Source: Proteromonas lacertae
Taxonomy: Eukaryota
Length of the DNA: 47,598 nucleotides
Assembly (NCBI GenBank): GCA_002245135.1
Contig: NGBS01000344.1
Span: 1-47,598, forward strand
Direction of reading: 5' to 3'
Made by a program: the position numbers and the translations under genes. A model generated the notes under the pieces. That model saw only the letters and a program-made list of their open reading frames with translations, had not been told where the DNA came from and did not search any database. Each line of letters starts with the position of its first letter. Within the stretch, counting starts at the first letter, position 1. Below are positions 1-23,837 of this stretch, one piece after another.

Positions 1-767
1 TTATAACCATTACTATCGTTTTTAATTTTCATATTAAAGTTTACACGAAATTCATGATTGCACAAATCGATGTAGAGGAATGAATGATTACTGTAATTGG
101 TTGCATACTTGTAATATTCTCTAAACTTACTGAAATCTACCCATAAATCTAAACTATTATGAACACTGTGTAGATTAGCTAAACTTAGATTTCTAAATAC
201 TAAGCAATAATCTAATTGTAGACGAACAGATGGTGTTAAATCTGTAACATATTGACTTGATATAATTACTTTTGACTTGTAATGACGGTTTGATTTGAGT
301 AGTTTTGAAACGGTCTTATTTGATAAATCGAATGATATATCATCGAATATAAAGATATTTTCAGGATAGCTATAATTGTCTTTATCAACATCTGTGATAT
401 TATTCAATACTGCATCTAATACATTCACTTTATCTTCATTTACTATTGAATCGTAACAATGGTACTCTATTAAATTGTACTTCAGCATATCAGTGATCTT
501 TTCATAAATAATATCCTTTGAAATTGTTCCTACAAAGAAATATACAGTTTGATCATAATTCTTCTTTAACAAGTGTTGTATCATGTTAAATATAAGCGTT
601 GTCTTTCCACTGTTCTTCTTAGCTAATATAAATATATTGCAGAAAGGCTCTTCAAAATAATCATAGCCTAAAACATTATCTCTTGATCTCTTTTTATTAC
701 CTTTGACTACTGATTCTACTGGCGTTATGACAACGTCATTACATTTCTCTAGTTTTATTTTACTCAT
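1..767 (-). CDS. A32/FtsK-HerA family DNA packaging ATPase (3' end runs off window)
   Basis: Manual translation from ATG at 767: MSKIKLEKCND...NIFILAKKNSGKTT (Walker A)...NIFIFDD (Walker B)...LLKSNRHYKSKVIISSQ (arginine-finger/Q motif of A32 ATPases)...HSFLYID. 255 codons open with no stop before base 1. Confidence 0.92.
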   Translation of the reverse strand, partial: MSKIKLEKCNDVVITPVESVVKGNKKRSRDNVLGYDYFEEPFCNIFILAKKNSGKTTLIFNMIQHLLKKNYDQTVYFFVGTISKDIIYEKITDMLKYNLIEYHCYDSIVNEDKVNVLDAVLNNITDVDKDNYSYPENIFIFDDISFDLSNKTVSKLLKSNRHYKSKVIISSQYVTDLTPSVRLQLDYCLVFRNLSLANLHSVHNSLDLWVDFSKFREYYKYATNYSNHSFLYIDLCNHEFRVNFNMKIKNDSNGY

Positions 768-835
768 TTAAAGAAAAAACAAAAAAACAATTATATAAAG
801 AATATAACCATTATGTTAGTTATTAGTTAGTTAGT

Positions 836-2293
836 TTAAATAACACTTACAATTCCACTTCCATTGATTGTACACATTCTTCCTGTAACTATATAGAAAC
901 GATGAGTGATATTAAAGTTAGTGAAATCATTTGTACCAGGAGTAGACAACTCAAAAGTGATCTTTAAGTCACTAGCTAATGGTCTTCCTGATTGATTCTT
1001 GATATTATCCAAGTCTTTAGATCCAAAATTCAAAATTTCAAAGAACTTCTTTTCAAAAGGAATATGTCTTTTGAATATATCAAACCATGAATCTTTGAAA
1101 TAATCTTGTACAGTCATGTAACTATCATAATACTGCATTAATGAATAGTCTGGTTGATACACAAAATCGTTAATCATCCATCTGAATTGTGCATTTTCAG
1201 GAATTACTGCATATCTATTTTCTGCTGTGCCACCACTCATATCATGTGCTGTTTGAGTTCCTTCGATCCATGGTCTATAGATAATGTAACGTAAGAATGG
1301 TCCATTTGAACTGTTTAATGTAAAGGAATAGTTGAATTGTCCAGATCCACCTTGATTTACTGTTAATGTATGACACTTTACATCATTGAACTGGATTGGT
1401 TTAGATAAACAGTAACTTCTTGTATTGTTATTACATTGAGTATCCTTATTCAAATAAGCATAGAAATAAAAGTTCTTGAATTTAATTGAATCTGGTCTTA
1501 TTCCATCTGTAGGCCAGTTTATTGTTGTAGCTGCGCCTTTATCATTATTAAAACCCATAATTTGTCCAAATTTAGGACTTTGTTGGAAATTGAAACATAA
1601 ATACATTCTCTCTCCAAAGAATACATCACTTTTCATTGATAAAAATGTATTGTAAAATTTACCTAAAAACATCTTTACATGAATAGTTTTAGACTTTTTA
1701 TACTGTTGATATTTATCTTTTGTTCCAGTAGCTGTAACAAATGTAGCTTCTTCTTTATCCATTTCCCATTCATTTTCATCAAGAATTAAATGATCATGGT
1801 ATTCATCATTCCATTTTAATTGAATTCCATCATAATAGTTTGATTGATAAAAAATGTCAGATCTTTTTCTCACTAATTCATCCATAAACACTCTATAGTG
1901 TTCATAATTGTCATCAAGCTTAACTAGATCTGTTCCTGTATTATTACATAAACGAAATGCTGCTAATCCAAATCCTTCTTTCATTCCTTTTATATATTTT
2001 GGATATAAAGTAGTATCACCTGCTACATCACCACTACCATCAGTTTTTTTAAATGCATTTGCTGCAGCAAGTGGATGAGTTTCAATTTCGATATCATATT
2101 GAATGTAAGACTTTGCAAGGTTTATAATGTTCTCACCACTTAATTCGAACCTTATTTCATCTGAATAAGTATTATCTTTAAGTTGATAGAATGATTTTGT
2201 TTCCATTGGTGTCAACTTGACATACTGGTAAAAGGCCATCATTGCTGGAACGTCTACACCGTGTTTTTGCTCTTTTGGGATAGTTAGAGACAT
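836..2293 (-). CDS. Putative double jelly-roll major capsid protein (Polinton/PLV type), ~485 aa
   Basis: Likely start MSLTIPK at 2293. N-terminal EIRFELSGENIINLAKSYIQYDIEI and internal KMFLGKFYNTFLSMKSDVFFGERMYLCFNF resemble Polinton/PLV MCP patterns. Beta-strand-rich, right size, lies between penton and ATPase. Confidence 0.8.
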   Translation of the reverse strand: MSLTIPKEQKHGVDVPAMMAFYQYVKLTPMETKSFYQLKDNTYSDEIRFELSGENIINLAKSYIQYDIEIETHPLAAANAFKKTDGSGDVAGDTTLYPKYIKGMKEGFGLAAFRLCNNTGTDLVKLDDNYEHYRVFMDELVRKRSDIFYQSNYYDGIQLKWNDEYHDHLILDENEWEMDKEEATFVTATGTKDKYQQYKKSKTIHVKMFLGKFYNTFLSMKSDVFFGERMYLCFNFQQSPKFGQIMGFNNDKGAATTINWPTDGIRPDSIKFKNFYFYAYLNKDTQCNNNTRSYCLSKPIQFNDVKCHTLTVNQGGSGQFNYSFTLNSSNGPFLRYIIYRPWIEGTQTAHDMSGGTAENRYAVIPENAQFRWMINDFVYQPDYSLMQYYDSYMTVQDYFKDSWFDIFKRHIPFEKKFFEILNFGSKDLDNIKNQSGRPLASDLKITFELSTPGTNDFTNFNITHRFYIVTGRMCTINGSGIVSVI

Positions 2294-2324
2294 CAGAAAC
2301 TCAAAATAAAAAATAAAATAAAAA

Positions 2325-3290
2325 TTAGACTTTAAATACAACAATATCTAAATTAAACTCGATATTATCAAGATTGAGTTCATAACCATTTTGTTGAGTA
2401 ATCTGAATAGTAATTTGTCCATTAGTATAAGTATTATTGAACATTTTGCTAGTATTAAGAATGTCATTGTTCTGGTATGTAATAAATGGTAACTCAGGGT
2501 TTGCTATTGGTATATTTTCTAACACATTTGAATCTTGAATGATGTTTACAATATCTAAACGAATGGATATCGCACTAACCCATATAAGAGATGGACGATA
2601 TGGTAATTGAGTAAATGGGAAATCTACTGAAAATGCAGCTAATGCTTTTTCTGTTCCTTGAGGTCCTGGAACAAATTTATCATAACATAACCAATAGTTA
2701 TTATTTGGAATACCTAATATCTTGTAGGCTAAATCTTTTGTTACTATTTCTATTTTTGAAATCCAAAAAATAGGTTTTGTTAAACTATATAATGCATTCA
2801 TTTTACTTGCAATTTTTAAATGTCTGGTATGTTCATCATCTTTATCATCTAGCTTAAATAAATCACCATTACCTTCTATTACAGGTGTATATAGTATATC
2901 CTTAACTATAAACAAATCATCATCAGGAATTTCGAAATCTATATATTTTATAGAACGTATTCCATCATTGATTAACTTAATAATCTGATTCTCATCATAA
3001 AAACCTTCAGGGATTTGTACTGATACACATACTGTGGGTTTTTCTGGCGCTGCGCCATCTTCTTTATTATAATCACATGTAAATAAGAACTGAAACGTAT
3101 CGTTTGTCTCTGCTTGTATAGTAGGGAAAGAATTGGGTACAACTGCGTGTAATAACGACACATGAGTATAATCTTGATCAAATGATGGTAAGGCTAAGGT
3201 CTTTTTGTATCTATTCCCTACTCCGAATGTCCCTGTAGTCATTACCATATCAGAATTTAAATAGTAAACACGGTGATTAGAGACTAACAT
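2325..3290 (-). CDS. Putative minor capsid (penton, single jelly-roll) protein
   Basis: VYYLNSD...VSLLHAVVPNSFPTI...VQIPEGFYDENQIIKLIN and C-terminal ITIQITQQNGYELNLDNIEFNLDI match the PLV/Polinton penton pattern (i.l....ipnS.y.I; ip.G.Y). Directly upstream of the MCP. Confidence 0.82.
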   Translation of the reverse strand: MLVSNHRVYYLNSDMVMTTGTFGVGNRYKKTLALPSFDQDYTHVSLLHAVVPNSFPTIQAETNDTFQFLFTCDYNKEDGAAPEKPTVCVSVQIPEGFYDENQIIKLINDGIRSIKYIDFEIPDDDLFIVKDILYTPVIEGNGDLFKLDDKDDEHTRHLKIASKMNALYSLTKPIFWISKIEIVTKDLAYKILGIPNNNYWLCYDKFVPGPQGTEKALAAFSVDFPFTQLPYRPSLIWVSAISIRLDIVNIIQDSNVLENIPIANPELPFITYQNNDILNTSKMFNNTYTNGQITIQITQQNGYELNLDNIEFNLDIVVFKV

Positions 3291-3307
3291 TTTGAAAAAA
3301 ATAATAA

Positions 3308-3339
3308 TGTCAATATTGGTAATATTAGTAATATTGACA
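3308..3339. promoter_or_regulatory. 32-bp imperfect palindrome in the divergent intergenic region of the viral module
   Basis: TGTCAATATT-GGT-AATATT-AGT-AATATTGACA: 10-bp perfect outer arms and three AATATT hexamers at 9-bp spacing, between ATGs at 3290(-) and 3353(+). Confidence 0.6.
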
Positions 3340-3352
3340 CTATTTTTATTTT

Positions 3353-3976
3353 ATGGAAGATAATAAAAAACCTAAACATAGAACAGTTCCATTCAAATTA
3401 ACAGAATTAGACAAACAAGTAATCATCAGAAGCTTCAGAAAAGACGGTAAAATCAGAGCTCCCACAAAATCGAAATTATATCATTTAATTTCAGGATCAA
3501 AATCAAGACTTACATACTCAGAGATAAGATATATATTGAAATACATCGAAGATGAGTACAAATATTACATAGAATCAAAGTTTAAGACAGGTTGTTTTAA
3601 TGGACCAATCATTGAACAAGTAAAAGTACCTCTTAACGCGCCAAAACTAACCGCTTCAAGCTTCGCTCAAGCCTTAAGTAAACACAAAGAACACAGAATT
3701 GCAGGTCAAAAGAAGACAAGAATGATGTTAGAACAGATTTTAGCATTACATAAGAAGGAAGAAGAGGATTTTTTACCTCCACAAGAGATAATTGACATAA
3801 AAGATGACGAAATTAAGGTAAAAGAAGAGGTAAATTACGTAAAACCGGTCACAAAATCGAATGTAAACAGTTTAAGTGGTTTAGAAGACTTGTCTCCTGT
3901 TAATTCAGTTCCTAGTTTAAGCCCAAAATCAATAACAGATAAAAGCATTATAAGACCTAATTGTATTATTTTTTAA
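3353..3976 (+). CDS. Hypothetical basic protein, probably viral
   Basis: 207-aa intronless ORF divergent from the capsid cassette; Lys-rich; no family recognised. Confidence 0.65.
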   Translation: MEDNKKPKHRTVPFKLTELDKQVIIRSFRKDGKIRAPTKSKLYHLISGSKSRLTYSEIRYILKYIEDEYKYYIESKFKTGCFNGPIIEQVKVPLNAPKLTASSFAQALSKHKEHRIAGQKKTRMMLEQILALHKKEEEDFLPPQEIIDIKDDEIKVKEEVNYVKPVTKSNVNSLSGLEDLSPVNSVPSLSPKSITDKSIIRPNCIIF

Positions 3977-4009
3977 TTATTTTTGTTAATTGATTTAAAA
4001 TTTTTTCTT

Positions 4010-4246
4010 ATGGGGAACGATATAATGACAATTTTACTCTCTGTATTAGTATTTATACTCTATATGCTCGCTCTGGCACTGTACAAATACTTCAAAGCAC
4101 ACAATTGTATTCCAAATGAGGTAGATATCGCAGACATTCGTTCAAATATGACTGATATGATGGAGAAAGGCTTGCAGCATGACAAGACATTGGAAGATAT
4201 AAAGGCATATATAGACATTGTGAATAAAAGAAAGCACACAGTTTAA
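4010..4246 (+). CDS. Small single-pass membrane protein, probably viral
   Basis: ATG at 4010; hydrophobic helix ILLSVLVFILYMLALALY followed by a short helical tail. Confidence 0.55.
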   Translation: MGNDIMTILLSVLVFILYMLALALYKYFKAHNCIPNEVDIADIRSNMTDMMEKGLQHDKTLEDIKAYIDIVNKRKHTV

Positions 4247-4281
4247 ATAATTTGTAACGAATTAATTTTTTATTATATATT

Positions 4282-4372
4282 AAACGGCTATTTTTTAGGG
4301 AAAGTGAAACGACTCTTTATTTAGGGAAAGTAAAACGACTATTTTTTAGGAAAAGCAAAACGACTATTTTTT
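4282..4372 (+). repeat. ~25-bp direct repeats, about 3.5 copies (TTTAGGGAAAGTRAAACGACT-like)
   Basis: AAACG(A/G)CT cores at 4282, 4307, 4333 and 4358 (spacing 25/26/25). Confidence 0.85.
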
Positions 4373-5002
4373 CATTAAAGAAAATAAAACTTATTATTGA
4401 GATTCGAACACGTTTTCATCATTTAAATAGCAACGGTTAAACCGTTAGACTAAATAATTGCCCAAAATAAAGTACATGTGACGATTCATTTTGTACAATG
4501 TCGTTTGAAGAATAATTCTCAAACGTTGTGTCAAAAATAGAATATGAAGAAATTTCTGAGAAAATTCAAAAATTTGAATTTTCAAACATTCAAATCTATT
4601 ATGACGAGATTTGACTTGAACAGTTGGTTTGTGCATCAAATTTCAAATCTATTCTGAAATTATTTAGTTGGCTTGTCCAAATTGAAATTGAAGAATCATA
4701 TAAGAATATTTGTGTTTTGTTATTTTTAAAAATATTGATACGGCATTTAGAGCAAATTTGAATTTTTGAATTTTTTAATTTCGCGCCTTTTTTTTATTTT
4801 TTTAAAAAAATATTCCTTAAAAAATTATATCCGTTTCAATTCAAGCCACAGAATAGTCGAACTTTTTTTCAAACATTGAGTGCTAGCATAGTTATAAAGT
4901 CACGTTTTACATCAAACATTTTGATTTGAGTCAATATTTACACTAATCGTAAAAATTGATCTCAAGCTTTTTCAATTTCAAAAATCGTCAAAATCATCAA
5001 AA

Positions 5003-5782
5003 ATGAGTAAAACTATCGTCAAAATTCTTTATGAAAATGGTAATGGAACCTTGCTCGAGAATGCTCTCGCAAATATAGAGCGTTTTAAATCCGATTCCTA
5101 TTCGATGTATGAATTTGATCCTTCAAAAAGTGTTTTAAATCGTTCTGAAGATGAAACAATTGCAGATATGAAAGATTTACATGACGAATTCATAATGGAA
5201 GATTTACTTAACTATTTAGCAAAAAGTGTATTTTTTCAATTTAATTTTAGGAATAGCTATTTTGGTTAGAGTGAATGAAAAAGACGAGCCTGTTGATGAT
5301 GATTTACAATCTGATGATGAGATGGTCAAGCAAGTTGTATTCAACAGCTGTGGTGTAAACACCAACAAGAAGACCTTAAAAAGAATGGATTTCAAAGGCT
5401 GTAAATTTGTGGTACCAAATGGTAATTATCCAAATGAATACAGTTTTAGTTACATTGATGTGGTACAACCAAAGAGAATTCTTAAAGTTGCCAAGAATAG
5501 TGTATGGAGTGCTCCTAAAAAGGTTAAACAAAGAGATCATCAAATTGAACAAAAAGAAGAAGTTGTAAATTTAACCAATGAAAAAGTCAAACGTGCATTT
5601 CCCATTATGAGCACACATGGAAAAAGAGAAGAATTCATAATGTGTTAAAAATGAGATCAATTGATGATCAAGAAAATGCTGTTAAACAATTAGTGAACAT
5701 CACTATCAACAATGAATTAAGATTGCCTGAATTAGAATTATCAAACTACTATTAAACAATTGAAATCTTAATTCTTGCATAA
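5003..5782 (+). CDS. Spliced hypothetical gene (viral or host origin unresolved)
   Basis: A 25-nt GT..AG intron at 5226-5250 joins ORFs 5003-5269 and 5226-5648 in frame (AK-R-IAILVR). Coding-like sequence continues to ~5782 via apparent frameshifts. TCAAGCTT lies 41 nt upstream and TGTTTGTT at 5794. Confidence 0.5.
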
Positions 5783-6084
5783 AGAGGTTTGAATGTTTGT
5801 TTGAGTTTTGGGGAACTTAAAAAAAATTTTGAATGAATCAAGCTATAACTCGTGGTCTAGCTTGGTGGCACAGCATTCGAGCCTAATGGTCTGTAGCCCT
5901 TACTATATATTATTGTAGTATAATCCGTAAGGAGTAAGCGGTAGAGCATATTTTCTCTGTCCCGATATTTTTGGTTTCATTTTTCATAATTATGGCATAA
6001 ATAGTCTGAACTATAGTTAATAAGGACATATATATAATTATACATCAAATATAACATACATTTGTTGTACGCCGTTGAGCTAAA

Positions 6085-6199
6085 TGCGCCGTTGAGCGTT
6101 AAGATGACTTTTTTCAATTCTAAAATGATAGTGTGTGGTTTGATGGCGAGTTATATGCAAATATAATCTTACTTTGTCATATAAGCTACATCTGCGATA
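6085..6199 (+). repeat. 115-bp dispersed repeat, inverted copy at 23838-23952
   Basis: The reverse complement matches 23838-23952 with one mismatch by eye. Confidence 0.9.
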
Positions 6200-6448
6200 C
6201 AGTCAAAACCGTGTAATATGTACTCTTTTTTACCTAAAAGTTCATATTACATTTTTGTTTATTGCATATGATTTTTGGGGATGCTAATCTCAACATATAA
6301 ATTTACCATGTATTTTTATGTAATATACTTGCAGCTTTTAATAAAAAAATAGATAATTACGTTAATAAAATATCAAATAGTATTGACTGTTTATAGAGAA
6401 TAAGATAAAATTATCAAAAAACTTGAATTTTTCAAGTTGCATTTTATA

Positions 6449-6912
6449 ATGTCAGCAGTAAAAAGACCTTATGATCAAGTATATAACTACTTCAATACAA
6501 ACGTAAGCATAACCAAACCTACTGAAAAGTCGAAAAGAATTGAATGTAAAACATGTAAAGAAATAGTTGTATGTCATGCCACTTGCTTAAAAAGACATGT
6601 GAAAAAGTATAATATATATAGATTATAATTTATTAGCTGCAAAAAAAGTAAAATAGTTCAAGAAAAACTGGATCTAACAAAATACAATCAGAGAAAGATT
6701 AACGGTTATTTAGCTGATTTTATTATAGAGAATTCATGCAGTTTTAAGTTGATTGAATCAAAAACATTTAAAAACTTAATCAAATCTATCAACCCTTCCA
6801 TTAAACTAGGTTCAATCAAGTCTGTTAAAGATATAATTAAAGAAGAAGGTGAGAAGATAGTAAAAGAATGCATTAAAACCAATGAAAAAATGTGTATTAT
6901 AATAGATGGATG
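6449..6912 (+). pseudogene. hAT transposase, N-terminal part (BED zinc finger to first catalytic Asp)
   Basis: VYNYF...IECKTCK...LKRHVK (BED finger), short intron at ~6607-6636, then YLADFIIENSCSFKLIESKTFKNLIKSINP...MCIIIDG, cut by an insertion. Confidence 0.88.
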
Positions 6913-6999
6913 TGTTGTTCCCCGTATGGCGGAAATCTATATTGCAGAATGATTCAATCAAAACTAATATGATATTCATGATGTTCGGAGTTAGTTATT
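6913..6999 (+). repeat. Left terminal inverted repeat of the Ginger-like element
   Basis: Near-perfect reverse complement of 15295-15398. Confidence 0.93.
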
Positions 7000-7879
7000 T
7001 TAGAATATATAGGTTTCGACCCATATAAACAACTTTTTTAGGCAACGAAAAAATGTCTTAATATGACATGAAACCTATCTAGATAGACTACAAAATTCAT
7101 GTAGATTATGAATATAATATTATTTTATATATATACACTCAAAATGAAAATTATCAGTTATTCAGGATTTAAGAATTTGACCCCTTCTGACGTCATTTCT
7201 GTCTCGAGTTTTCTATCAAACTTTTGAAATGTTTTTCTTGATTTTTCTTATTATATAGTGTTTTTTAAATTACTTTACTATAAATATTAGAATTAATAAT
7301 GAACAATTTACCATTTGATATACATAGAAACTAAAATACAATTAAATCTACCTAAATAGCTAATGTTCATATATTTTATAATTTATAAATGAAATGTTTA
7401 TTAAACAATTTATAATTATTTATTTTATATAGCTTATTTTAGTTAACTGCTTCTATTTACTAATTACTTAAATATGAGACTACTGCATATTTCATTTACT
7501 CATATTGGATAAGAACCATTATTAGTTGATTATAAATTTAAGTTAATTCTATTCTAAAGTCATCCTATACAGTCATTTAAAAATATATCCGTTTCCTTTG
7601 ATATTTGAATTTAATTTTGAAAATGTAAGTGCTATATATATTATTTATATATTATTATTATATATTATTATTATATTATAAATTATATACTCATGTAATC
7701 ATATTAATATATTTATTACCTGATTTTAGATTTAATATAACAATCATCCTTACAGTACTTGTTTATCAAATGTTGTATATGGTTTTTATACTTATTACAC
7801 TTGATTTTTTGTGATGAGTCATTTTAAACATCGTTATAAGCAGAATATAATTCTAGGTTACAATAATGAGTTTGATAAA

Positions 7880-10300
7880 GAGTGCATACACTAGTTATAT
7901 GATTTTTTAAAGTATTATGGAAATGATATGTCTTACTAGTTTATAAAAGAAGATCCACAAGATTATGAAATTGCTGGTTTGTTCGTTAAATTAAGAAACA
8001 TAAAAGAAAAAGCAATAATCTATTACAGTGTGAAAGATGAAAAAGTCATAAAAAGATTTGATTATCTTCATACAATTAATTCAAATGATATGTTTCAAGA
8101 AGTGGAGAGAGTAATATGATCTAATATGCTGTTTGTTAAATTAGATGAGATAATAGCTGATTTTGATAGTCCTTCAACAGGAATAGTAGATCCATCAGTT
8201 CCAACCACTACAGCTACAGCAGCACCCCAACAGAAGCTGCTCCAGGAGCAATAACATATTCGATTTATTAGTAATTTCTCAATGTCTTTATTATCAAATC
8301 ATCGAATAATAGAGAATATAAAACTTGCTTATATAGATGGAAGTAGTGAGATGGTAGTAAAAGAAATAATTGAAGTTTCATTTCTTCATTTGGGAAGTGT
8401 AAATGGTGATAATTGTAATGGTAATATATTATACAGTAATGCGATGACATACAGTTTACTTAGTCGAAGTTATCAAAACTTAATGAAAAGTTATGAGATA
8501 ATCACTTCCTTTATAACAAATGAAAGAAATTTAGTATATAAAGGAAGTTATGAAATGAAAGATATAAGCTGCACAGCTGCTTACGATGTAGTATCTCAAA
8601 TCAATACAAATTGTCAAGGAAGTTGTTTAATAATTAGTGTAATAACAATGAATAGTGTGGATTATCCAGTATTGAGTTTCAGTTTAGATGAGATAATAAT
8701 CAATAGTTATTTGAACAGTTATGAAAGTGAAAGTAGTAAATCGTTAAAAGAATCGTTGAAGTTATATATTGATTAACTAATTTTAACATCTACAATGTCA
8801 ATTGGTTATTCAATAATCAAAATATATGTCGATTCAATCAATCCGATAGGTAAAGATGAAACCGAATATAAAAACGATTATACAATAAGTGATGAGTTAA
8901 TAAAAAGTTCAAACAAACGAATAGGTATTTGGCTAAATGAAGAAAATAATGATGTTCGAATTTATTATATTATGAAGCAATATGAGATTTATATAAATTC
9001 AAATGATGGCTTTAGAGGTAATTCAATTCAATTATCAATTCTTTATTGTATGAATAATGATGAAGAATTAAGTAAGATGGTGAATAACACAGAATATGAG
9101 ATAATAATCAGTAATTGTAATAGAAATATAATTGAAAATCATAAGAATGAGATAGAAGAGAATAATGTGACCATATTTTCAATAAGAAAAGAAGATTCAA
9201 ATACATGTGATGATAAAATGTATAAATATATTATTATTGTTATTATTATTATTCTATATTGAATAGAATTCATTCTTCTACTTCTCCATCTCGAAGAGTC
9301 TTGCCAATAGTAGAATATTTGCTATCTAAATCAATATCCAAAATAATCTTAATCTATCCAAAAGGTTTTGAATATGCTTCAGATTATGATTTATTAACTA
9401 GTTCAATTAATGCATTAGGAGCAACAATATCTAAAGAATATAAAGTGAATGAAACAGATATTAATGACATTATATCAGCAGTTCAAGCAGCAATGGCTTC
9501 AGTTAGAAAATATATAAATGATGGTGGTTTAATCTTTAATTTATTAGAAACTGAAGCAAGTAATATAATGTATGAGAAACTGTTTAGCATATGAGAATAG
9601 CTAAGAAATCTCTTCAAAATATCGAATAATCTCCAGAAAGATAGAGAATTTTAAGAAAGTAGATAAGAAATATCGAAAAAGATATGACATCATTGTGAAA
9701 GTATGTGTTATACATATGATGATAGTTTAATTAGTAAAATAAGAATGTTAATATTTGGAAATGAAAGTATATTATCAGAAAGTGAATCTGTTGGAATAGC
9801 AACAATCGAATATATAAAATCTGATATAAATTCAATCAACTTATTAGAATTTCTTCAATCAAGTTCAATATTTACATCTTTTGGAGATATTTCAATTGGT
9901 TTTGATAATTGCATAAACTTCCCAATGTTTTTATTAACAAGTGTAGATGGTAAAATCGAAGAGAAAGTGATATTATATAAAAAATGGAATAGTGATACTT
10001 ATCAAAGCAATTTCAATGAGATTCATTTAAATCGAATAATAATATCTTTAATATTACTATTTCCAAGTACTGGATTATTTGCTTATCGTGGAGTAGATTT
10101 AGTATCAAGTTATTTATCAACAATCGAATATTTAAATGAAGTAGAAAGTGAAAGTGGTTTATTCTATCTACTGAAGATGTTAGAAGTAAAAGATCAGTTA
10201 TTAAGTTATTAAGAATATATTTCATACAGGAATTTCTTTTCCAACAAAATATCCAATAATCTCTTGGATTGGTTCTAATTTAGGTATAAAAGAACGGCTG
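7880..10300 (+). pseudogene. Captured, fragmented host gene cargo with type-1 periplasmic-binding-protein-like segments
   Basis: Broken ORFs 8282-8776, 8795-9262, 9259-9594 and 9703-10212 with a residual intron (~9221-9266). ISLILLFPSTGLFAYRGVDLVSSYLSTIEYLNE resembles the N-terminal motif of LivJ/UrtA-type binding proteins. Confidence 0.45.
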
Positions 10301-10616
10301 ACCAAGTTCCAATGATAAACTATAAAATGGAAGATATAGTATCAACATCAAATAGTGAATTAAGTTTGGTTTGGTATAATAATACTAATCAAATGAATTA
10401 TTCTAATCAATTATTATCATGGTTAAATTTGTTACCATTTGTTTTTTGTATTGGTGTTTGGTTTTTTACAGATACAATCAAAAACAAGAATCAAAAACAC
10501 AAATTAAAAACACCATATATATGACTGTTTTATTATCTATATATAATATAATATATACTATCTATTTATATAATCTATTTTATACATAATATATAGCTAA
10601 TTTATCTTTCATATAG

Positions 10617-11508
10617 GTTATCTGATAAGCACGATATTAGAGATACTCTTGAATATAATCATAAAGCAATCTTTTTTGAGAGTATTGAAGAATTAGTGAA
10701 AAATAAGAAACGTTCTTCTATTTTTACACAAAAGAAATTTGACGAATACATAAAATGTATTAGAGACTACAAGCATAAAGGTTTTGAATTCAATGAAACT
10801 GATGGTAAGCTTACATGCAAAGGAAAAGAGATCATAACAATTGATAAAGCTTTTACACTTATTGAGAAATTACATTTGGAGTTTGCTCATCTTAAATCTG
10901 ATCCTCTCTTTGATAAGATTCAAGAAATGAATTTATATGGAATAACAAGAGAAGTTGTAGAAATATATGTTAAATTATGCAATGGATGCAAAGAAACAAA
11001 GAAAATAACATTACAGAAACCAGTAAAGCCGATTATATCTCATTATCCTAAAGATCGTGTGGTAATTGATTTAATTGAAATGACAGCATTTAATCCACAT
11101 AAAAAAAGAGGTAAATACAATTATATATTGACAATGATAGATCATTATTCAAATTTTACAATGCTTTACCCACAAAAGACGAAAACAGATAGAGAAACAG
11201 TGAAGAATGTCCAGTCCTATATTAGAATCTTCGGTCCTCCAAGAATAATTCAATCTGATAATGGTGCAGAGTTTAAGAACAAATTGATGAAGGATTTATT
11301 AGAAAAGTACAATATTAAAGAAGTCCACAGCTCTCCAAGACATCCGCAATGCAATGGTAAAGTTGAAAGAATGAATAGATTAGTCAAAGAAACAATTACA
11401 AGTTATCACAATATTGAACCAAAAGTTTATTGGATAAATTTTATAGAAAGAACAATTGAAAGAATAAACTCATCAAAATGTAGAAGAACAAGATGTAAAG
11501 CTATATGA
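10617..11508 (+). CDS. Retroviral-like (rve) integrase/transposase of Ginger type
   Basis: HHCC finger LHLEFAH...LCNGC; DDE core VVIDLIEM, IIQSDNGAEF, PRHPQCNGKVERMN; also YILTMIDHYS. Frame is open back to a splice acceptor at ~10616. Confidence 0.93.
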
Positions 11509-11517
11509 TTATTTTTT

Positions 11518-13936
11518 ATGAGTGTTAATGAGATAATGAAACAGAATCCAAAGTTTAAACTTGAAGGAATAGTAGAAGAAGATTATGATGATGATAATAA
11601 TGATGATGATGTTTGTGATTATATTGATGATGATGTTTGTGATTATATTGATGATACTGATAATGAACTTGATGAATTATACTTCGATTATGAAGATAAA
11701 GATGATATAGATAACAATGAAATGAAGAAAAAGAAAAGAGAAGATGATAATTACAAAAAGAACGAGAAAAAGTTTAAAAAAGAAAATAGCAGGAAGAAAG
11801 ATAAAGATGATAATTTAGATGATAATTTAGATAATAATAGTTTAGAAGAAGACATAGTTGAGAATATAAATGATGATAAAAGTATAGATGAAACACTTTT
11901 AGATATTGAGAAGAATGAGAAAGAGACAATAGCGAAGAATGAAAAGATAAATAACCATGAAATTAAAGAGTTGAAATCAGTAAAAGATAAGAAGTTTACA
12001 AAAAATAAAAAGGTCTATGAAGATGAAATAGTAGATATTATTAATGAAACTAATGAAGATAATGATGAAGAAGAATCGACAGAAGAGGAAACTGAAAGTA
12101 ATGAGTTTATTGCTAATGTAACAAAGCACTTCAAAGCAGCAAATCAAATATATGATGAAATGAAAACTAGACAATATAAATATAATAATAATATGGTAAA
12201 TGTTTCCAAAAAGAAATTAAAAGGAAAAGAAATAGCTCTTAAAGAGGGAGATGTTGTTGTATATTCTGAAAATAGAAAGAATTATCAAGATAGAAACAAG
12301 TTTGCAATAGTTAAACAGGATAAGAAGGCGAAGAAAGAAAAGTTATATATAATGTATATTATTATTATATATATATATGTATATATAGAACTGATGATTA
12401 TAAAACTATTAGAATAAGACCATCAACGCCTGTACATAAAATACAACTCACAGAGGAAGTAAATGCTGTTACTAAAAGAAAAGCCAGTAAAATATATGTA
12501 CATATAAATATATATACAATATAATATAGATCGATAATACTCCACAAAAGAAGAATAAATATTGTTCAGAATCTGATATTGAAAGAATACACGACATTGT
12601 AAGAAATCCTAAGCTTAATGCTGTTTATGAAACAATAGCTATTCCTTTCAATGATAATATTGAACAAAATCAAGTTGATGAAAGAAAATTAAAATATGTA
12701 ATAGAATTGATGAATAGAATAGGTAAAGAACAATTGGATCTTGAAGATTTACAATATTTATTAAAATTATATTATTATAATAATATTTATAAAGATTATG
12801 ATAATAATTATTTACATGATGGAAAGTTTGAAAAGTTTTTAATCATATCCAATGGCATTTATTACACTATGGTTGTTAACAATAAAAAACAAACAGTTAA
12901 TATCATAGATCCATCAGGCGAAGGTAACTATGATGAAGATTTAAAGAAATTATCTACTCATGTTACAAGTACAGATGGAAATGATTATAAAGTAATGTAT
13001 GATGTCATCGAAGTAACCCATCCACAAGCAACAGAAATAATAGCATTAATTACTTTCATGGCAAGTATTAAAAAAACTCAATTTGGATTTATAGACAACG
13101 CATTAATGGAAATACTTTTCAAAGATTATTTAAAAACCTTGGTTAACAATCATTCCAGAATTATAGAGTTAGCATATATAGAAGTTATGCCGATTAAAGA
13201 AGATAATGCCAATGATCAAAACATCTTGTACGATGAAGTTCAATACAATTCATTAAATTTTTTGGATAAAGTTAGACTCAACTATCAATATAACGATGAA
13301 GGAGTAAGATATTATGGAACAGAAAAGGATTATTTTATTAGAAAAGTAAATGATATAAAGGATGTTTTAGACAAAGATACAATGTTGGATGATGACCAAT
13401 TCAAGATTCTCCTACATTTTATGAATAGTAATAATGATCATGTTGTAGATCCATTACTATTTTATTATCAAGACAAAGCCAAAATCAAAATCAACATAAA
13501 TGGAATATATTTTTTTCCAGTTGTTAAAGATTTACATTGGACGTTGTTTGAAGCAGATTATATAATAAACAGATACATCAAAATTACAGTTTATGATTCA
13601 ATGGGTTATTTTAGAAATAATAATAAAGAAAGAAGTGAAATAGTTAATACAATCTCATCAATATTTGTAATGAACAGTGAAGATTATGAACTTAAAGTGA
13701 AGTATCATGAATCCAAGTTGATGCAAGGTAAGGACAACAGTTGTGGTTATTATGTGTTATTTTTCTTAGCTGCGAGAATCAACTTCTTGGATATTGAAAA
13801 GATCCCAAACATTGAATCATTTAATATTGACTATTTTATCAAAGATATTAAGAAAGGATTACAGAATTTAGATGATAATGAAAAGGCAAAGATGTATTTC
13901 TATGCAAGTAAAAGACCAACTTATTACAAGAATTAA
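11518..13936 (+). CDS. C-terminal extension of the transposase: acidic linker, short exons, Ulp1/C48-type cysteine protease
   Basis: Same frame as the integrase after a single TGA. AT-rich introns at ~12342-12388 and ~12487-12529. Catalytic order FFPVVKDLHWTL (His), ITVYDSM (Asp), MQGKDNSCGYYVL (Gln/Cys). Confidence 0.82.
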
Positions 13937-14056
13937 TGCACTCATTATTACTTCTATTACTATTATAAACACTATATTTCTTATATTCTATTAATAATTT
14001 TTAATTTTTGAGTATAAAATAAAAAGCAACTGCATAATTTAAAACTATGTATAATT

Positions 14057-14929
14057 TGAATTACAATATTGTTCAGCTTTATAAATATATTATAAAATAT
14101 GAAATTATGTAATTTTGACTTAATCGATTAAGAAAATTTTTGAAATTTTGATATTCATTACATGTGATTATATATAAATGTAAATCACTTAATAAGCATT
14201 TGAATTATAATAATTTTGTTTCATTTCAATATAGATAATGTAGTTAAAAATCGATTCCGCCATATGGGGACTCCAATTTCATTCATCTCCCATATGGCTT
14301 TTAGAAGACTTACATTCATTTCATTTATATGAATGAATTACAATATTGTTCAGCTTTATAACTATATTATAAAATATGAAATTATGTAATTTTGACTTAA
14401 TCGATTAAGAAAATTTTTGAAATTTTGATATTCATTACATGTGATTATATATAAATGTAAATCACTTAATAAGCATTTGAATTATAATAATTTTGTTTCA
14501 TTTCAATATAGATAATGTAGTTAAAAATCGATTCCGCCATATGGGGACTCCAATTTCATTCATCTCCCATATGGCTTTTAGAAGACTTACATTCATTTCA
14601 TTTATATGAATGAATTACAATATTGTTCAGCTTTATAAATATATTATAAAATATGAAATTATGTAATTTTGACTTAATCGATTAAGAAAATTTTTGAAAT
14701 TTTGATATTCATTACATGTGATTATATATAAATGTAAATCACTTAATAAGCATTTGAATTATAATAATTTTGTTTCATTTCAATATAGATAATGTAGTTA
14801 AAAATCGATTCCGCCATATGGGGACTCCAATTTCATTCATCTCCCATATGGCTTTTAGAAGACTTACATTCATTTCATTTATATGAATGAATTACAATAT
14901 TGTTCAGCTTTATAACTATATTATAAAAT
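14057..14929. repeat. Tandem array, 277-bp unit, ~3.15 copies
   Basis: TGAATTACAATATTGTTCAGC recurs at 14057, 14334, 14611 and 14888; units near-identical. Confidence 0.95.
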
Positions 14930-15294
14930 TATATGAAAGTCAAAATTATAGAAATTCGATATTTAATGTATCTCATTTTTATAAAATCTTAAAGTATCAG
15001 TCTATAATATTGCAGAATATATTATTAAATAATTTTATGACTACTTTAGCATAAAAGAATTAGTAAATGTTTTAAAAATAGAAAAATTGCACAATTAAGG
15101 GGGTGAAAAAATTAAGGAATTTCATTATATTTTTTCGATTATCATAATAACCAGATGGAATTTTTTTATAATATTTTATAATATTCTTAGTTAGAATATG
15201 TACTAATAGAATATTAAATAATATTAAATATATTGGTGAATTGAGTGATATCGTCTCATGTCTTACATATGATAAAGTTTATTATATATTTGTT

Positions 15295-15398
15295 AATAAC
15301 TAACTCCGATCATCATGAATATCATATTAGTTTTGATTGAATCATTCTGCAATATAGATTTCCGCCATACGGGGATTTCCGCCATACGGGGAAGAACA
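15295..15398 (-). repeat. Right terminal inverted repeat (with internal ~17-bp duplication)
   Basis: GATTTCCGCCATACGGG occurs twice in tandem before GAAGAACA. Confidence 0.93.
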
Positions 15399-15403
15399 GG
15401 ATG

Positions 15404-16646
15404 GACTAATACAAATAATAGATCCATCATAAATATTGCTGTGAAACAAATTAATACTTACTTTCTCGAGTCAGTATTTATTGATGAGAATCAAACAGCC
15501 AAAAATATAGTCAAACTAATAGAGACTACGTTATTAAAATATGGTATTACTCATGATAAAATTGTGGCAGTTAGCAGCGACAACAACTACACCATGAAGC
15601 GTGTAGGCAAGATAATCCAGAGTATAAACAATGCTCCTGTGATTATTTGTGGCTGTATTAGCCACACACTTAATTTAGTTTGTAAGAAAGTTTTGGAGCT
15701 TAATAAATATAAATCTATTTTAGATAAATGTAATACAATAGCTCATAAGCTAAATACGTCAGTTACGATTAGAATAATAATATTCAATAAATTGAAAAAG
15801 TTTATACAAGTAAGAAAGGGAGTTACTACTCGCTGGAGTAGTTACTTCCAGCTTTTTAAAGGTGTGTTAGATAATCAAGAGATACTTGTAAGAATTAACT
15901 TATTAGATAAGAATGAAATACCTATAATTAAAGAATTATATAATATTACAGAATATAAATACCAAAAAGTTCAATATTTGAGTAGAGACAATTCTACTCT
16001 TTCATTTGCATATAAAGTACTCTCTAAAGCTAAAAAGGATCTATGTAGAATGAGTAGCACAGAAAAAGAAAAAATAAGTGTAATATATCAAAAAGAGAAG
16101 AAACTAATCAATTATAGTATATTGATATTAAGTGAGTATTTAGACGTGAGTAGTTCCAAAAAGTTTAATGAAAGAATTGTTAATAGTATAAAAAGATACA
16201 TTTTAAATAGATTTTCTCATATTTGTGATAAAAAGCTTACAGAAGAGTTATATTATTTTGAAAATAGAATGAGATATGGAATGTCTCCAGCTAATATTTT
16301 TGATAATTCGAAGGAAATGAATCCGAAGATATGGTACAATAGCTACGGATGTTATTTTCCCAATTTGAAAAGAATATTTGATTATCTAAACATAATCCCT
16401 ACAAGTTCTGCATATATTGAAAGAACGTTTAGTATTGAGTCATTTATTCATAATAAAACAAGGAACAAACTCAATATTAGTTTAATTAATAATATGATGA
16501 GAATAAAAATGAAACAGCTAAATGACAGAATAACTACAAATGAAGATAGTTATGACCATGACGATTATGATGAAGATGAAGAAAGTGATTATGATGAGAC
16601 CACCACAAAGCCCAACTTATTAATTATATTTCTTTTTTATTATTAA
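15404..16646 (+). pseudogene. hAT transposase, C-terminal part
   Basis: WTNTNNRSIINI, VSSDNNYTM, CISHTLNL (CxxH), TRWSS, IPTSSAYIERTFS (hATC dimerisation domain with catalytic Glu), RNKL. Confidence 0.93.
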
Positions 16647-16730
16647 TTTATTTTTTACAGAAATTAAAAAAAATTTAAGATTCTGTAGAATAATATCTCA
16701 TATTGGTAGTTGAGTGTGAGGAAATGGACT

Positions 16731-16800
16731 TCCCGATAGGGTTTTGTCCCGGGACGTGTCCCGTCCCTATCCCTCGTCCTATCCCCGTCCTGCCTACCCA
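16731..16800. repeat. GC-rich cluster of GTCC(C/T) motifs, probable hAT subterminal repeats
   Basis: TTTTGTCCCGGGACGTGTCCCGTCCCTATCCCTCGTCCTATCCCCGTCCTG just downstream of the transposase; no matching left TIR or TSD found. Confidence 0.55.
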
Positions 16801-16914
16801 AGAACATAACATATGTTGAAATTATTAATCTTTGTAATTATTTTATTTTTTAAATCGCTAGAATATATTAACATATATGTCTCATTAACATATTGATGTA
16901 AAAGAAAATTTTCT

Positions 16915-19900
16915 TTATTTAATATCTTCAACAAAAGTGTTTAATTCATCAAATGTAAAACATATTGTTCTTATCTTTTTCTTTGCTTCTTCAAAAAGTT
17001 TAGATTTATCAGTTTTATAAGTCATTGGTTGAAAAATTTTGGGATATTTAGATATTTTTCGATTATCTTTTAATCTTACACTAACTTCGTTATTTGGGCT
17101 TATATAAAATAAACCATATGGAGAATTATTATTAATAGCTGTTTTGTGTTTGAAAAACATTTTATATAGATTTTGAAGAATCATTATCATTTCAGGTGCT
17201 AATGAATGACTCTTTCCAACAGTAATTTGAATTCCATATGAACCTAGTAATAAATCAATATCGGGGTGATTATGTTTATAATTTAAGTCAATAATTGGAA
17301 ATTCTTTCTTCTTATAATTAAAAGTGTCTATTTCTTTCTGTAAATCACCATCATCTGAAACTTTAACTATTTCTTTTTTATCAAAGACAACATATTTATT
17401 CTTTTTATCATCTAAGTAATATTCTTTAATTTCATTAATCAAACTATCATAAAAAGTTTTACAATTCTTCATTAAATATGATATAATTCTTTCATATAAT
17501 AATCCAGCTAAACTTCCTACTGGATTTTCTTTTAATAGTTTTATCATTTTTTCACAACTTTCTTTATCATTTATCTTATAAAGTTTATCACATACCATCT
17601 TTTTGACTTCTTCAGATATAAATATAAGACCATTGGATTTTATAATACCATTTTCATCTTCATATGTATCATATATCAATATATTATCATATTCACCTTT
17701 TGAAAATGGAGATTTATTTATTCCTTTTAATATTTCTTCCATTATCACTTTGTTCTTTTCATCATTAATTGCAGTATTTATATATTTTTCACTATCTTCA
17801 TTTTTATAAAAACCAATAATACCTTTATATAATGGATATTTTTCTTCATACACTTTTTTCCACTTGTTATATTTATTCTTATTGAAAAATATTTGTGATT
17901 CATTAGAATTTATTTCATCACTATTTGTAAATCCTTTATATGTAATATCCAGTTCAATTCCATTCAATTTTCTAACTTCAATAAATCTTGTTTCTCCAAC
18001 TTTCTCTACTTCTTCTTGTGTTAATTGAGGTATATACATTATTGATGGAAATCTTTTACTTTGAAATGTTTTATACTGATTCTTGGATGGATTAGCTAAT
18101 AATATTATCATTTTTGCATCTGCATAATCATCTTCACCAATTACAACTTCATCAGAAATTACTATTTGAAATTTATTTTTCTTATCATAATATTCTTTGT
18201 TTTTGTAAGGACAGGTTTTTCCTTTAATTAAATGTAATATACTAACACTTTTACCGAATGCCTTATGAATATCCTCTCTAATGATATCAACAAACTTTGA
18301 CTTTCCTATTCCATTATGACCAAATATTAAATAATTTCTTTGGTTATCATTATTAATATTAAAATTTGAAGGGAAAATAATATTCAACATCTTTTTATAA
18401 CATTCTCTCACCAAAGTAACTTTACTATTATGTATATACACTTCCATTTTTGATAAAACTATTCTATTAGTAGTACTTGATGATAATAATGTTAGTGATG
18501 GTAATTTTGGTGGTGATGTTGTAGCTGATGGTGGTGATGATATATTCCATTGTTGCTCATCTTCTTTTTCTATTTCTACTTCTTGTTTTTCTTTTCTTTC
18601 CGATTGTTTCTGTTCTATTTCTACTTCTTGTTTTTCTTTTCCTTCTTGTTTCTGTTCATTGTCATCATCTTCATCCTGTCCATTATCTTCTTCTTCTTCT
18701 TCTTCTTGACTTAATGATATAGGAAAAGTATCATTATATTTTACTCTTCTATTTAGTATTATACAACATTTAAACTCATATCTTTCATTCATATTATATT
18801 TCTATTTAATTATAAATATAAATATATGTATATACTCTTATAGATTCTTTTATTTTTTCTTGTATTTCATCATCATTCTTAACTTTTTCATTATTCAGAA
18901 GTACTTTTATAAATACTCCATTCATTATCAAGTCAAAGAAATTATTTTCATCCAATATATAAAACACTGATTGTAAAGAATTTGGAGGATGATAAACTGG
19001 AACATATAACTCAGAATTCATTTCAAAATTAGAATCTTCATAGTTGAACTCAATCATACCAGTACTTAATTCATATGCTATTATCTGTTTTAATGCCATT
19101 CTTCTCATATATATATCATTAGTTGATGTATAATATTCTTCAATCTGATGATATTCTTTTTCATTTTTAGGTGGATTAAATTTACATACTATATATCTTT
19201 CTACTTCTTCAGAAATGAATTTCAATTTTCTTTCTGGTTGTAGTGTCATTCTTCCAACTTCATTATCCCATACTTGTTTTAAATCATATTTTAATATAAT
19301 GTTAGATAATTCTTTCAATTTATCTTTTCCCATATAATCATTTACAAACTGAATATAACCTGTTGTTCCTACTACACTTTCTATTAACTGCTTATAATAT
19401 TTCCAATAATCTCTATTATAATTATTGTTATACAAATAATGGTAATATATTTGTCGAGGATTATTACCATACTTTTCACATATTAGATCAAATTCAGTAC
19501 CTTTATCAAAATTAATACAATATGTAAACCATTCTTCTATTTCTGTTTTATTTAAAGTATCAAAATATAAATTTTTAGTATTGTTATCAATATATGTTTC
19601 ATGATTTTTAAAATCAGGAGAACTGATTGATATTACTATATTACTATCCTCAAACTCCTCATTATAAGTATCAACTATTATCAACGAATACTTAATATCA
19701 TGTGGATTTATTTTGATTTTAAATAGTATATATTCTCCATTAATATTTTCAAACTTGTATACTTCACCTTGTTTTATATCACCATATTTCTTCCCTTTAA
19801 TGAAATATATGTTTTTCATCTTTTTACAAGCATCGAAAACATAATAATTAAATCCAATACCTAAATCTTCTTTTACTTCAACATCTTTTATTTCATTAAT

Positions 19901-22176
19901 TTTATCTATTATTTCATCTTCTTTCTTTTTCATGTCTATTTTTGTTTCATTAAACTCTTTTGTAATACTATTAATTTCACTAGTAATTTCTGTTTTTCTT
20001 CGTTTATATAATTGTATTGATTGATTCATTTTCTTTATATTCACCAATCTGTTTAATATTCTTTCTGTTATTACTCTTTTACATATAACATCATTATCAT
20101 TTATATTTTTTCTTTTTATCCAATTTTTAAATTGATTTAATTCTTTATCATTAATTACTTTTTTAGCATCATTCAAATTAATGATTTCCTCCAAATTCAA
20201 ATTATTCTTTCCTTCATATATTGTGTTAGTTAAATTTTTATTATGTTTGATTGTCATTTCTTTATCATATATTTTCAATTTATATGTTTTTCCTTTTTGA
20301 GTGTATAAATCATGCTTATCTTTTTTATCATCTATTGTTTTAATCCTATTAATCTCTTTTGTAATATCTTCTTTTAAAATATTAATAGATTTATTACTTT
20401 CTTTTATATCAGCTTTAAGTTGTTTTATTACAATATTCAAATCAACAATTCTTTTCTCCTTTTCTTTATTCAATTCATTCAGAAATTCTTCTATCTCTTC
20501 ATTTTCTTTATTCAACTGTATTTTCTTCAAATATTCTTTTTCTTCTTCTCTATAATCATATGATAGATTATTCTTTAAAAAGAACAACAATACATATATG
20601 AAAGAGGTTTTGCCAATACCTGGTTGACCTGTAATGACTATGGAATCTATTTCATCACTTGATAAGAGTTTACATATATCTCTAAACATTGAATTGTAAC
20701 AATCTCTTATGTAAATAATATTCTTTGGAAACTGGAATACTTTCACATTGGCTTTTGAGAACTCTAAATATTTCTTTGTTTCACCAATTTCAACAGCATT
20801 ACTATTTTCATCGAGTTTAGTAAGTTCAATTATTTTCAAATTATTCACTATTTTAACGAAAGTATCTGGTGAATCTAAGTACTTTGTATTTTCATCATCA
20901 AAATATGTTAATAGTATTATTAAATCATTTATATCACTATTAGATAAATAATCTTCTTGAATTTCATTTAATAAAAATATATCTTCTATTCTTTCTTTTA
21001 TTACATTAATATCAATATTTGTTGGATTGGCTTTGATTGATAATAGTTCAGATATCCAGTAATACTTTTCATAGTTGTATATACTACAAATAGTATTTGG
21101 CACTTTATTCCATGAATTACAGCTTTACCATCTTCAATATTAATTGCATTAAATAAATGATAATCCTTTTTCTCTATATAATATTCTATTAATTTCACTA
21201 AACCTTTTCTATCACCAATACTAATACATGGATATATTGATGAAGGTAAGTTTTCATACACTAGTTTTTCAATACCATTTTCCTGTTTAATAAACATTTT
21301 CTTTTCATTCATATTATATTTCACTTCATATATTTCTCCTCTACTTCCTTGAATTGAAGATACTATTGGTATTGTTTCATCTCCAATTGTATAACCAAAG
21401 CTAATATTTTCATTACTAACACATTTTATCTCAAAATAGAAATGATAAATTCCACTTTTCTCTTTCATTTCTTCATTTATTGTAAAATAATACTTATTAC
21501 TACGTATATCTTGAAATAACTGATTACACACTACATATTGAATTTCATCCATTTTATTACCACCATTACTGCCATTATTATCATAGCTGTACAATTCATT
21601 GATAGACTTTTTGTAATTAACTACATTACAACTTTTATCTTGAGTAGTATTAATATCATATTTTCTAATTGTATATCTTTCTATCATAGGTAATGGAAGA
21701 TTCCAACTGCTTAAATATTTAACTGAATCATTTTTACCATCAATATATGGGTAAACTGTTGTTGAACTAATTCTACATACACTCACTTCTTTGTTATTTC
21801 CTTGTCTAATTGACATTCTTTTGTTAATCATATCATATATCACTTCATATGTATCTCCTACTGTTGCAACGACAAATGCATCATCTTCACTAATTGAATC
21901 TTCTTTCAGACGATAACCAAAACTAATACCATCAGTTAAACTCTCTACTTTGACTTTGAAATGATAAATCTTATTCTCCATCTTTTCGGAGATTAAACAA
22001 TCTTCTTTAGGAACATCTATATTAACGATTTCTGTCATTTCTTCTTCCATACCTTCTTTATCTTCATCTTTATCTTCTGTTTTTCGTTTTTTGGTATTTT
22101 TATCTACTTTGTCTTCATATGTTGACTTTCTCTTTTCTATTAAAAAAGTAATAACATGCAAAAGAATACCACGCAT
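16915..22176 (-). CDS. Large Crinkler/RHS-like protein: two SPRY-like repeats, P-loop NTPase with coiled-coil insert, second NTPase and PD-(D/E)xK-like nuclease
   Basis: Walker A motifs ITGQPGIGKT and IFGHNGIGKS, each preceded by YIRDCY/LVRECY. C-terminal PDIDLLLGSYGIQITVGKSHSL. A 34-nt intron (18802-18835) joins two ORFs in frame; one 1-nt frameshift near 21105. Confidence 0.7.
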
Positions 22177-23197: not shown

Positions 23198-23790
23198 GTT
23201 GGCCATTTGTCTACCAGACACTTTTAAAACAAACTAAATGTATATTCTTACTTGTCTTGATGAAAATTGTTACTTTTATACTTACTGTGTTATATGACCT
23301 ACATCTGCAGTATACTTCTTTGTTAATATAAATAGTTTGAATATTTGCGCCGTTTGTTTTCTAGAAATTTTTGAAGCAAACTAAATGCATATTTAGCTAA
23401 TATAGACAAAAATACATTAGCTAAAATGATTAGAACAACTTAATGTTGATCATAAGATATTTAAAACAAAAAAGAAAATATAGAATCAAGCCTTATTCAA
23501 GCCTATTTTTTACATTTCTTTTTTATATAGAAAGATTTAATAATTATTATATTCTAATCATTTCAGCTAATGTATTATAGTCTATATTAGCTAAATATGC
23601 ATTTAGTTTGCTTCAAAAATTTCTAGAAAACAAACGGCGCAAATATTCAAACTATTTATATTAACAAAGAAGTATACTGCAGATGTAGGTCATATAACAC
23701 AGTAAGTATAAAAGTAACAATTTTTCATCAAGACAAGTAAGAATATGTATTTAGTTTGTTTTAAAAGTGTCTGGTAGACAAACGGCCAAC
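23198..23790. repeat. Foldback/MITE-like inverted repeat, ~238-bp arms and ~115-bp spacer
   Basis: 23198-23435 is the near-perfect reverse complement of 23552-23790. Confidence 0.9.
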
Positions 23791-23837
23791 TATGACAAAT
23801 GGCGCACAACAGTTGAGATAAAGTCCAAAAAAATATA

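Follow-up and report, generated by a model that had tools for sequence, protein, structure and literature searches.

Ginger2/Tdd transposons combine an HHCC finger with a DDE integrase that has neither a GPY/F nor a YPYY motif, and they generate target-site duplications (TSDs) of 4 bp, or of 5 bp in TDD-4 and TDD-5 (PMC2836005). In the same paper (Bao, Kapitonov and Jurka, 2010), the Ulp1 and OTU domains are assigned to Ginger1, their role in transposition is treated as a hypothesis, and the excision of Ginger elements is described as unknown. Two further groups, GingerRoot/IS3EU and IS481EU, are described as having no HHCC finger upstream of the core (PMC10045372), and the integrases of SCAND3 and KRBA2 are reported to derive from Ginger2 (PMC3575427). 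Here, we analyze an element in 47,598 nucleotides of DNA from the eukaryote Proteromonas lacertae (assembly GCA_002245135.1, contig NGBS01000344.1, positions 1 to 47,598; “the window” below). It is probably an 8486-bp DNA transposon with terminal inverted repeats (TIRs), a retroviral-type integrase free of reverse transcriptase (RT) and a 5-bp TSD, likely of the Ginger2/Tdd group, inserted in the codons for the DGW motif of a hAT transposase gene. Its novelty is that a single 8.5-kb element brings together a core of the Ginger2/TDD type, a Ulp1 domain, and a cargo consisting of a whole gene.

The insertion is real and well defined, and the nesting of transposons is in itself ordinary. The element spans positions 6913-15398, starts TGTTGTTCCCC and finishes GGGGAAGAACA, with the termini TGT..ACA. 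The pentamer GGATG is present at 6908-6912 and again at 15399-15403, and in a comparison of flank lengths from 2 to 9, the flanks matched at length 5 only, in agreement with the ends and TSD given in the original prediction. When the right junction was trimmed by 3, 4, 5, or 6 bases, only trimming by 5 kept the frame (505 codons, versus 91-101). The hAT frame is recovered just as well from a 4-bp TSD (GATG) if the right end of the element is placed one base farther outward; we chose the 5-bp TSD because it gives symmetric TGT/ACA ends, on the strength of a single insertion. The features on which the argument draws are as follows.

6449 to 6912, plus strand: 5' part of the hAT transposase gene, with ATG, BED-like finger and predicted 30-nt intron (6607-6636), ending CIIID-G
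6908 to 6912, plus strand: left TSD, GGATG, comprising the Gly codon of DGW and bases 1 and 2 of its Trp codon
6913 to 15398, plus strand: whole Ginger2/Tdd-like element, TGT..ACA, 8486 bp
6913 to 7011, plus strand: left TIR, 99 bp
7814 to 10524, plus strand: decayed cargo gene, with 12 in-frame stops and no frameshift in 887 codons and one predicted intron of 47 nt (9220-9266)
10521 to 10596, plus strand: candidate transposase start, ATG ACT and then a GT..AG intron, acceptor site uncertain
10597 to 12353, plus strand: exon of the integrase-type transposase, with HHCC, DDE, premature TGA, acidic linker and a beta-rich C-terminal part without GPY/F
12354 to 12529, plus strand: predicted intron (12354-12388), 36-codon exon (12389-12497) and predicted intron (12498-12529)
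12530 to 13936, plus strand: last exon, with Ulp1 (Peptidase_C48; Pfam E 2.5e-7, above cut-off)
14057 to 14915, no strand assigned: 3.1 tandem copies of a 277-bp unit, with 0-1 differences between copies
15283 to 15398, minus strand: right TIR, in which 17 bp of the TIR core are repeated in tandem
15399 to 15403, plus strand: right TSD, GGATG
15399 to 16646, plus strand: 3' part of the hAT transposase gene, with DUF659, CxxH and Dimer_Tnp_hAT (Pfam E 3.7e-11 and 1.6e-7), no stops

Removal of the element, of one GGATG and of the 30-nt GT..AG intron, which contains an in-frame stop, leaves 558 codons with 0 internal stops. The product has the features of a hAT DDE transposase, with CxxH and a hAT dimerization domain. 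A BED-like C-x2-C..H-x3-C finger was seen by eye in the 5' part, where Pfam zf-BED gave no match at E ≤ 0.01. A homologue search with the 3' half returned two proteins among 5696 candidates. One of them, P0232, is a hAT transposase of 570 aa without interruption (60% identity); it is collinear with the restored model from the start through the dimerization domain, is 51% identical to the 5' part over 140 aa, reads through an in-frame insert at the position of the intron, and has CIIIDGWTN at the junction. Because this uninterrupted relative, of the kind that the original prediction had called for, spans the junction collinearly, the junction is confirmed by an independent sequence, and the claim of nesting within the DGW codons holds. 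The earlier description of the hAT copy as apparently intact stands for the open reading frame (ORF) but not for a complete hAT element, since a comparison of 5650-6448 with 16560-17000 and 22200-24420 revealed no paired hAT TIRs flanked by an 8-bp TSD. If equal substitution rates are assumed, 0 stops in 558 codons bound the neutral divergence of the hAT gene since its inactivation at less than about 4%, which fits a young insertion and is consistent with its having been called recent. Insertion into DGW was probably a matter of chance; since any site in the hAT ORF would have been disabling and the plus strand of the window contains 24 GGATG sites, this target needs no special explanation.

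The two TIR arms (6919-7011 and 15283-15375) are 93 nt long and 95% complementary; including the outer bases, the left TIR measures 99 bp and the right TIR 116 bp, which fits the range of about 50-300 bp of Ginger2/Tdd. Compared with the TGTNR termini of that group, both ends have TGT, and the fifth base is G on the left (TGTTG) and C on the right (TGTTC). The TIR core motif recurs, nearly unchanged, in each unit of the 277-bp array, and no long direct terminal repeats of the element were found. When metagenome contigs were scanned for the 19-nt TIR core, the four matches lacked flanking similarity and were attributed to chance; a scan of viral contigs gave ten distant loci, the best two without a long inverted repeat.

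The transposase is of the integrase type. ORF 10597-11508 matches Pfam rve (E 3.5e-14), with an HHCC finger (H93, H98, C128, and C131) and a catalytic triad D158-D221-E257, in which 35 residues separate D221 and E257. The closest solved structures, by sequence and by fold (mean predicted local distance difference test score [pLDDT] of the model, 54), are foamy-virus integrases, and the start MTVLLS at 10521 is common to the relative P0179. Pfam found neither RT nor RNase H in the element, and RT-bearing proteins matched the window at the integrase only; no GPY/F motif was found by regular expression in the window's integrase protein and no YPYY motif by eye in the family alignment. The premature TGA (11506-11508) lies directly past the integrase core, and the frame continues beyond it. 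Because this codon truncates the transposase where the 90-95% identical relatives P0001 and P0015 read Ser, the present copy is likely not autonomous, as judged from sequence; the TGA may also be a sequencing error. Separately, residues that are conserved elsewhere have changed in the closest integrase relatives (P0001, P0015, and P0029, 90-95% identical), suggesting that the family includes other decayed copies as well.

To place the integrase, 1.84 billion representatives were searched with HMMER, and the best 150 of 36382 matches at E ≤ 0.001 were examined. Among these, the closest relatives were unnamed and 35-52% identical, in addition to the 90-95% copies, and matches outside the window's family reached about 41% identity at most. 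The first tree comprised 174 rows, leaving out 17 short alignments and two non-hits, and IQ-TREE was run on 58 rows picked from it by hand, with group labels set after the first tree. In the 58-row tree, the window's family (8 rows) is supported at 100/99 and its sister clade of long unnamed proteins at 100/97, and an RT-free side of 43 rows is split at 100/99 from a Gypsy side of 15 rows, three of which are integrase-only fragments. Pfam scans covered nine of the 32 proteins on the Gypsy side, all of which had RT or RNase H, and 24 of the 141 on the RT-free side, none of which did, and the GPY/F expression matched 22 of 32 Gypsy-side rows versus 0 of 141 RT-free rows. The 24 RT-free-side proteins scanned included none with Ulp1 and one with an OTU protease domain (E 4.7e-10), namely P0110, an 848-aa RT-free relative of the integrase. 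Twenty clusters were looked up, almost all of them Logan proteins, and the SCAND3-like fungal protein P0040 was the only informative name on the RT-free side. In the Atlas comparison, a KRBA2 cluster ranked fourth (0.95) and a Preplasmiviricota cluster fifth (0.94). We call the element Ginger2/Tdd-like because its integrase groups with RT-free, GPY/F-less integrases, one of them SCAND3-like, and apart from Gypsy. The Ginger/Tdd assignment of the original prediction is thereby supported by an HHCC-DDE integrase, the lack of RT, TGT ends, a 5-bp TSD and the 100/99 separation from Gypsy, and neither the trees nor the domain scans grouped the integrase with RT-bearing long terminal repeat (LTR) elements, the outcome that had been named as contrary to it.

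Upstream of the transposase lies the cargo, which keeps to a single frame, shifted by the predicted intron only, and whose halves contain 5 and 7 stops, versus 46 and 40 in 2000 shuffles. Its codon use correlates at 0.93 with that of 12 other ORFs in the window, with a G+C content at third codon positions (GC3) of 0.18 in both. There is a hydrophobic segment near the C-terminus and a weak match to Peripla_BP_6 (E 0.014, below the curated cut-off). Judging from such features, we consider the cargo likely to be a captured host membrane-protein gene that has since decayed; its implied neutral divergence is about 7% (range 4-13%), versus about 0.5% for the transposase. Pfam and NCBIfam gave only matches below cut-off and PDB no sequence match, a general protein homologue search not having been made; Atlas values were below 0.8 for one 174-aa piece, the single-sequence fold had a pLDDT of 35, and no internal repeat was found. 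Five of the 12 stops fall within 32 codons (9592-9687), with the same frame on both sides, and some of these clustered stops may lie in unrecognized short introns. A variant genetic code was considered for the cargo and is not supported, since TAG (3), TAA (6), and TGA (3) all occur and the usage of CAA, CAG, TGG, and GAG is close to that in host genes. Indices of repeat-induced point mutation type were unremarkable. The cargo pseudogene, like the Ulp1 domain and the nonsense codon in the integrase, is an addition to the original prediction.

Set against the described systems, the element resembles Ginger2/Tdd (TDD-4 and TDD-5; PMC2836005) in its TGT..ACA ends, TIRs of about 100 bp and HHCC + DDE integrase, in the absence of GPY/F, YPYY, and RT, and in a 5-bp TSD like that of TDD-4/5. 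It differs from that group in its length (8.5 kb, versus 2.7-6.7 kb for the full-length families in Table 2 of PMC2836005) and in its predicted C-terminal Ulp1, cargo gene, and 277-bp subterminal array. With GingerRoot/IS3EU (PMC6839031, PMC10045372), it shares the carriage of gene fragments by an integrase-type DNA transposon (29% of GingerRoot copies), whereas the TSDs of those elements measure 6 bp, their ends are mostly TA..TA and they lack HHCC, compared with 5 bp, TGT..ACA, and HHCC here. The domesticated Ginger2 integrases SCAND3 and KRBA2 (PMC3575427) are similar in that a SCAND3-named protein falls on the same side of the tree and KRBA2 is an Atlas look-alike. Unlike them, this is a mobile TIR element in which no SCAN or KRAB domain was found, and its relation to hAT is one of interruption, the integrase being inserted into a hAT transposase and not fused with it. 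Unlike a Gypsy LTR retrotransposon, the element yielded no RT, RNase H, or LTRs, and the 6-bp TSD, AG..TC ends, and DNA polymerase gene of Polinton/Maverick (PMC6839031) were not seen. For Ginger2 elements with Ulp1 or OTU, the literature search found only PMC2836005, and no account of the present mix of traits came up; because Repbase and subscription journals were outside that search, the combination of traits may be catalogued already.

The residues H336, D356, Q399, and C405 are all present in the Ulp1 domain, and splicing the two predicted introns (35 and 32 nt, AT-rich, GT..AG) yields one 1090-codon frame with a single internal stop. All six long relatives examined have a similar Y/M/I-rich tail ending at the first intron. 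These predicted gene structures make it likely that a fusion protein of about 1090 aa is encoded, in which integrase and Ulp1 are linked through the two short introns. It appears unlikely that the Ulp1 ORF was captured as a second gene or stands apart from the transposase. The ORF does have its own in-frame ATG; its sole relative among 4659 candidates, P0196 (90% identical, on 8 contigs), is called as a stand-alone 408-aa protein; and no fused relative was observed. However, both introns join the three exons with exact phases, the ORF is open for 60 codons upstream of its ATG, the integrase relatives end at the same point, and the ORF has 0 stops, versus 12 in the cargo. The exon had no sequence match in PDB, and neither a second, degenerate Ulp1-like repeat nor an OTU-like domain in the sister clade, both suspected by eye, was supported.

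As for the class of the element, a Ginger1 transposon that lost or eroded YPYY and GPY/F would share its C-terminal Ulp1, introns in the transposase, TIR length (within 40-270 bp) and G+C-richer target with the published description (PMC2836005). This nevertheless seems quite improbable, given that GPY/F and YPYY were not found, that the TSD has 5 bp rather than the 4 bp of CCGG/CCGT, and that the integrase groups away from Gypsy, with whose Athila/Tat members Ginger1 is associated (PMC2836005). If the element instead belonged to a lineage of its own among integrase-type DNA transposons, either sister to Ginger2/Tdd or outside it and deserving a separate name, this could explain why the family is a clade in its own right with a single unnamed clade as its sister (100/97), why matches outside it, among the best 150 of 36382, reach only about 41% identity, and why Ginger1-like, TDD-like, and GingerRoot-like traits are mixed. 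We consider this unlikely: Ginger2 members are only about 30% identical in the core (PMC2836005), which puts such a distance within the group, and the SCAND3-like protein lies on the same well-supported side. We give very little credence to an assembly chimera or a remnant of an LTR retrotransposon or Polinton; other perfect repeats in the window and the virus-like genes nearby could hint at one, but the TIRs are bordered on both sides by a perfect TSD, the frame that it restores has its counterpart in an independent protein, RT similarity and long direct terminal repeats were not found, and the HHCC finger and TGT ends are absent from Polintons as described (PMC2836005, PMC6839031). Membership in Ginger2/Tdd remains likely, as judged on a phylogeny without reference Ginger1, TDD-4/5, or Polinton sequences and with groups labeled after the first tree. 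Several further points weigh against our reading of the element. In PMC2836005, Ulp1 is listed for Ginger1 and not for Ginger2, and the target of Ginger2 is the AT-rich RTATAY, versus GGATG here, at one site; only one insertion was observed. The integrase-Ulp1 fusion is drawn from predicted introns, and none of the stored integrase relatives has a Ulp1 match, though close ones stop at the first intron. Finally, a donor of the cargo was not found, its only family match is below cut-off, and its 12 stops occur without a single frameshift.

By analogy, the element likely works as a Ginger2/Tdd cut-and-paste transposon. The transposase would bind the 19-bp TIR core, which is available once on the left, twice on the right, and as three near copies in the 277-bp array. 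It would then expose the CA-3' ends and attach these to target bonds spaced 5 nt from each other, in the manner of retroviral integrase, our model for the end-joining steps (PMC10045372), and host repair would make the TSD. Ulp1 might remove SUMO-like modifiers during transposition. We propose that an ancestral element captured the host membrane-protein gene, which decayed while the transposase stayed under selection. The protein of the present copy would be cut off just after the catalytic core, with its C-terminal domains missing; this copy may have been moved by the transposase of an intact sibling, or it may have gained the stop after landing.

The surroundings hold further repeats and genes. 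A virus-like gene set occupies positions 1-5650 of the window, including a P-loop ATPase-like ORF at 3-767 on the minus strand (PHROG terminase E 5e-5, Pfam ResIII E 0.002) and, adjoining it, ORFs of 503 and 341 aa without family match. By eye, the latter two resemble the genes for the major and minor capsid proteins in a Polinton-like virus or a virophage. A 115-bp inverted repeat (6085-6199 and 23838-23952, 99% identical, 17.6 kb apart, no TSD found) encloses the hAT gene, the Ginger element, and three P-loop-type ORFs, and it could mark the ends of a larger element or be a dispersed fragment. A palindrome of about 600 bp resembling a miniature inverted-repeat transposable element (23198-23790) has arms of 69 and 182 nt, 96% identical, and TAT on each flank. 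Paralogous genes at 26200-28700 and 36700-38550 share about 73-78% DNA identity, and one of the two has a protein kinase domain (36320-37222). A foldback at 38516-41448, which starts inside a gene paralogue, has two nearly 100% identical arms, each about 1245 bp long and separated by a spacer of 444 bp, and is either an inverted duplication or an assembly artifact. Long ORFs at 16915-22197 and 32227-34923 (minus strand) contain G-x4-G-K/N-S/T P-loop-like motifs without a Pfam match. No tRNA genes were found in the window.

Altogether, the element combines traits that the defining paper splits among groups, namely the Ginger2/TDD core and TSD, the Ulp1 of Ginger1, and the gene capture of GingerRoot. 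We put forward only tentatively, at somewhat less than even confidence, that a Ginger2/Tdd-type lineage in an AT-rich microbial eukaryote gained Ulp1 independently of Ginger1 and became a Pack-type carrier of whole host genes. If the fusion is true, the diagnostic split between Ginger1 and Ginger2 would be blurred and, together with the OTU domain on P0110, the idea that integrase-type DNA transposons have repeatedly recruited ubiquitin/SUMO proteases would be supported; the family would also offer a natural system for asking whether deSUMOylation aids transposition. In addition, the nested insertion fixes to the base the ends and TSD of a little-studied group of transposons, and with ends so sharply defined, the family can serve as a substrate for studying Ginger excision.

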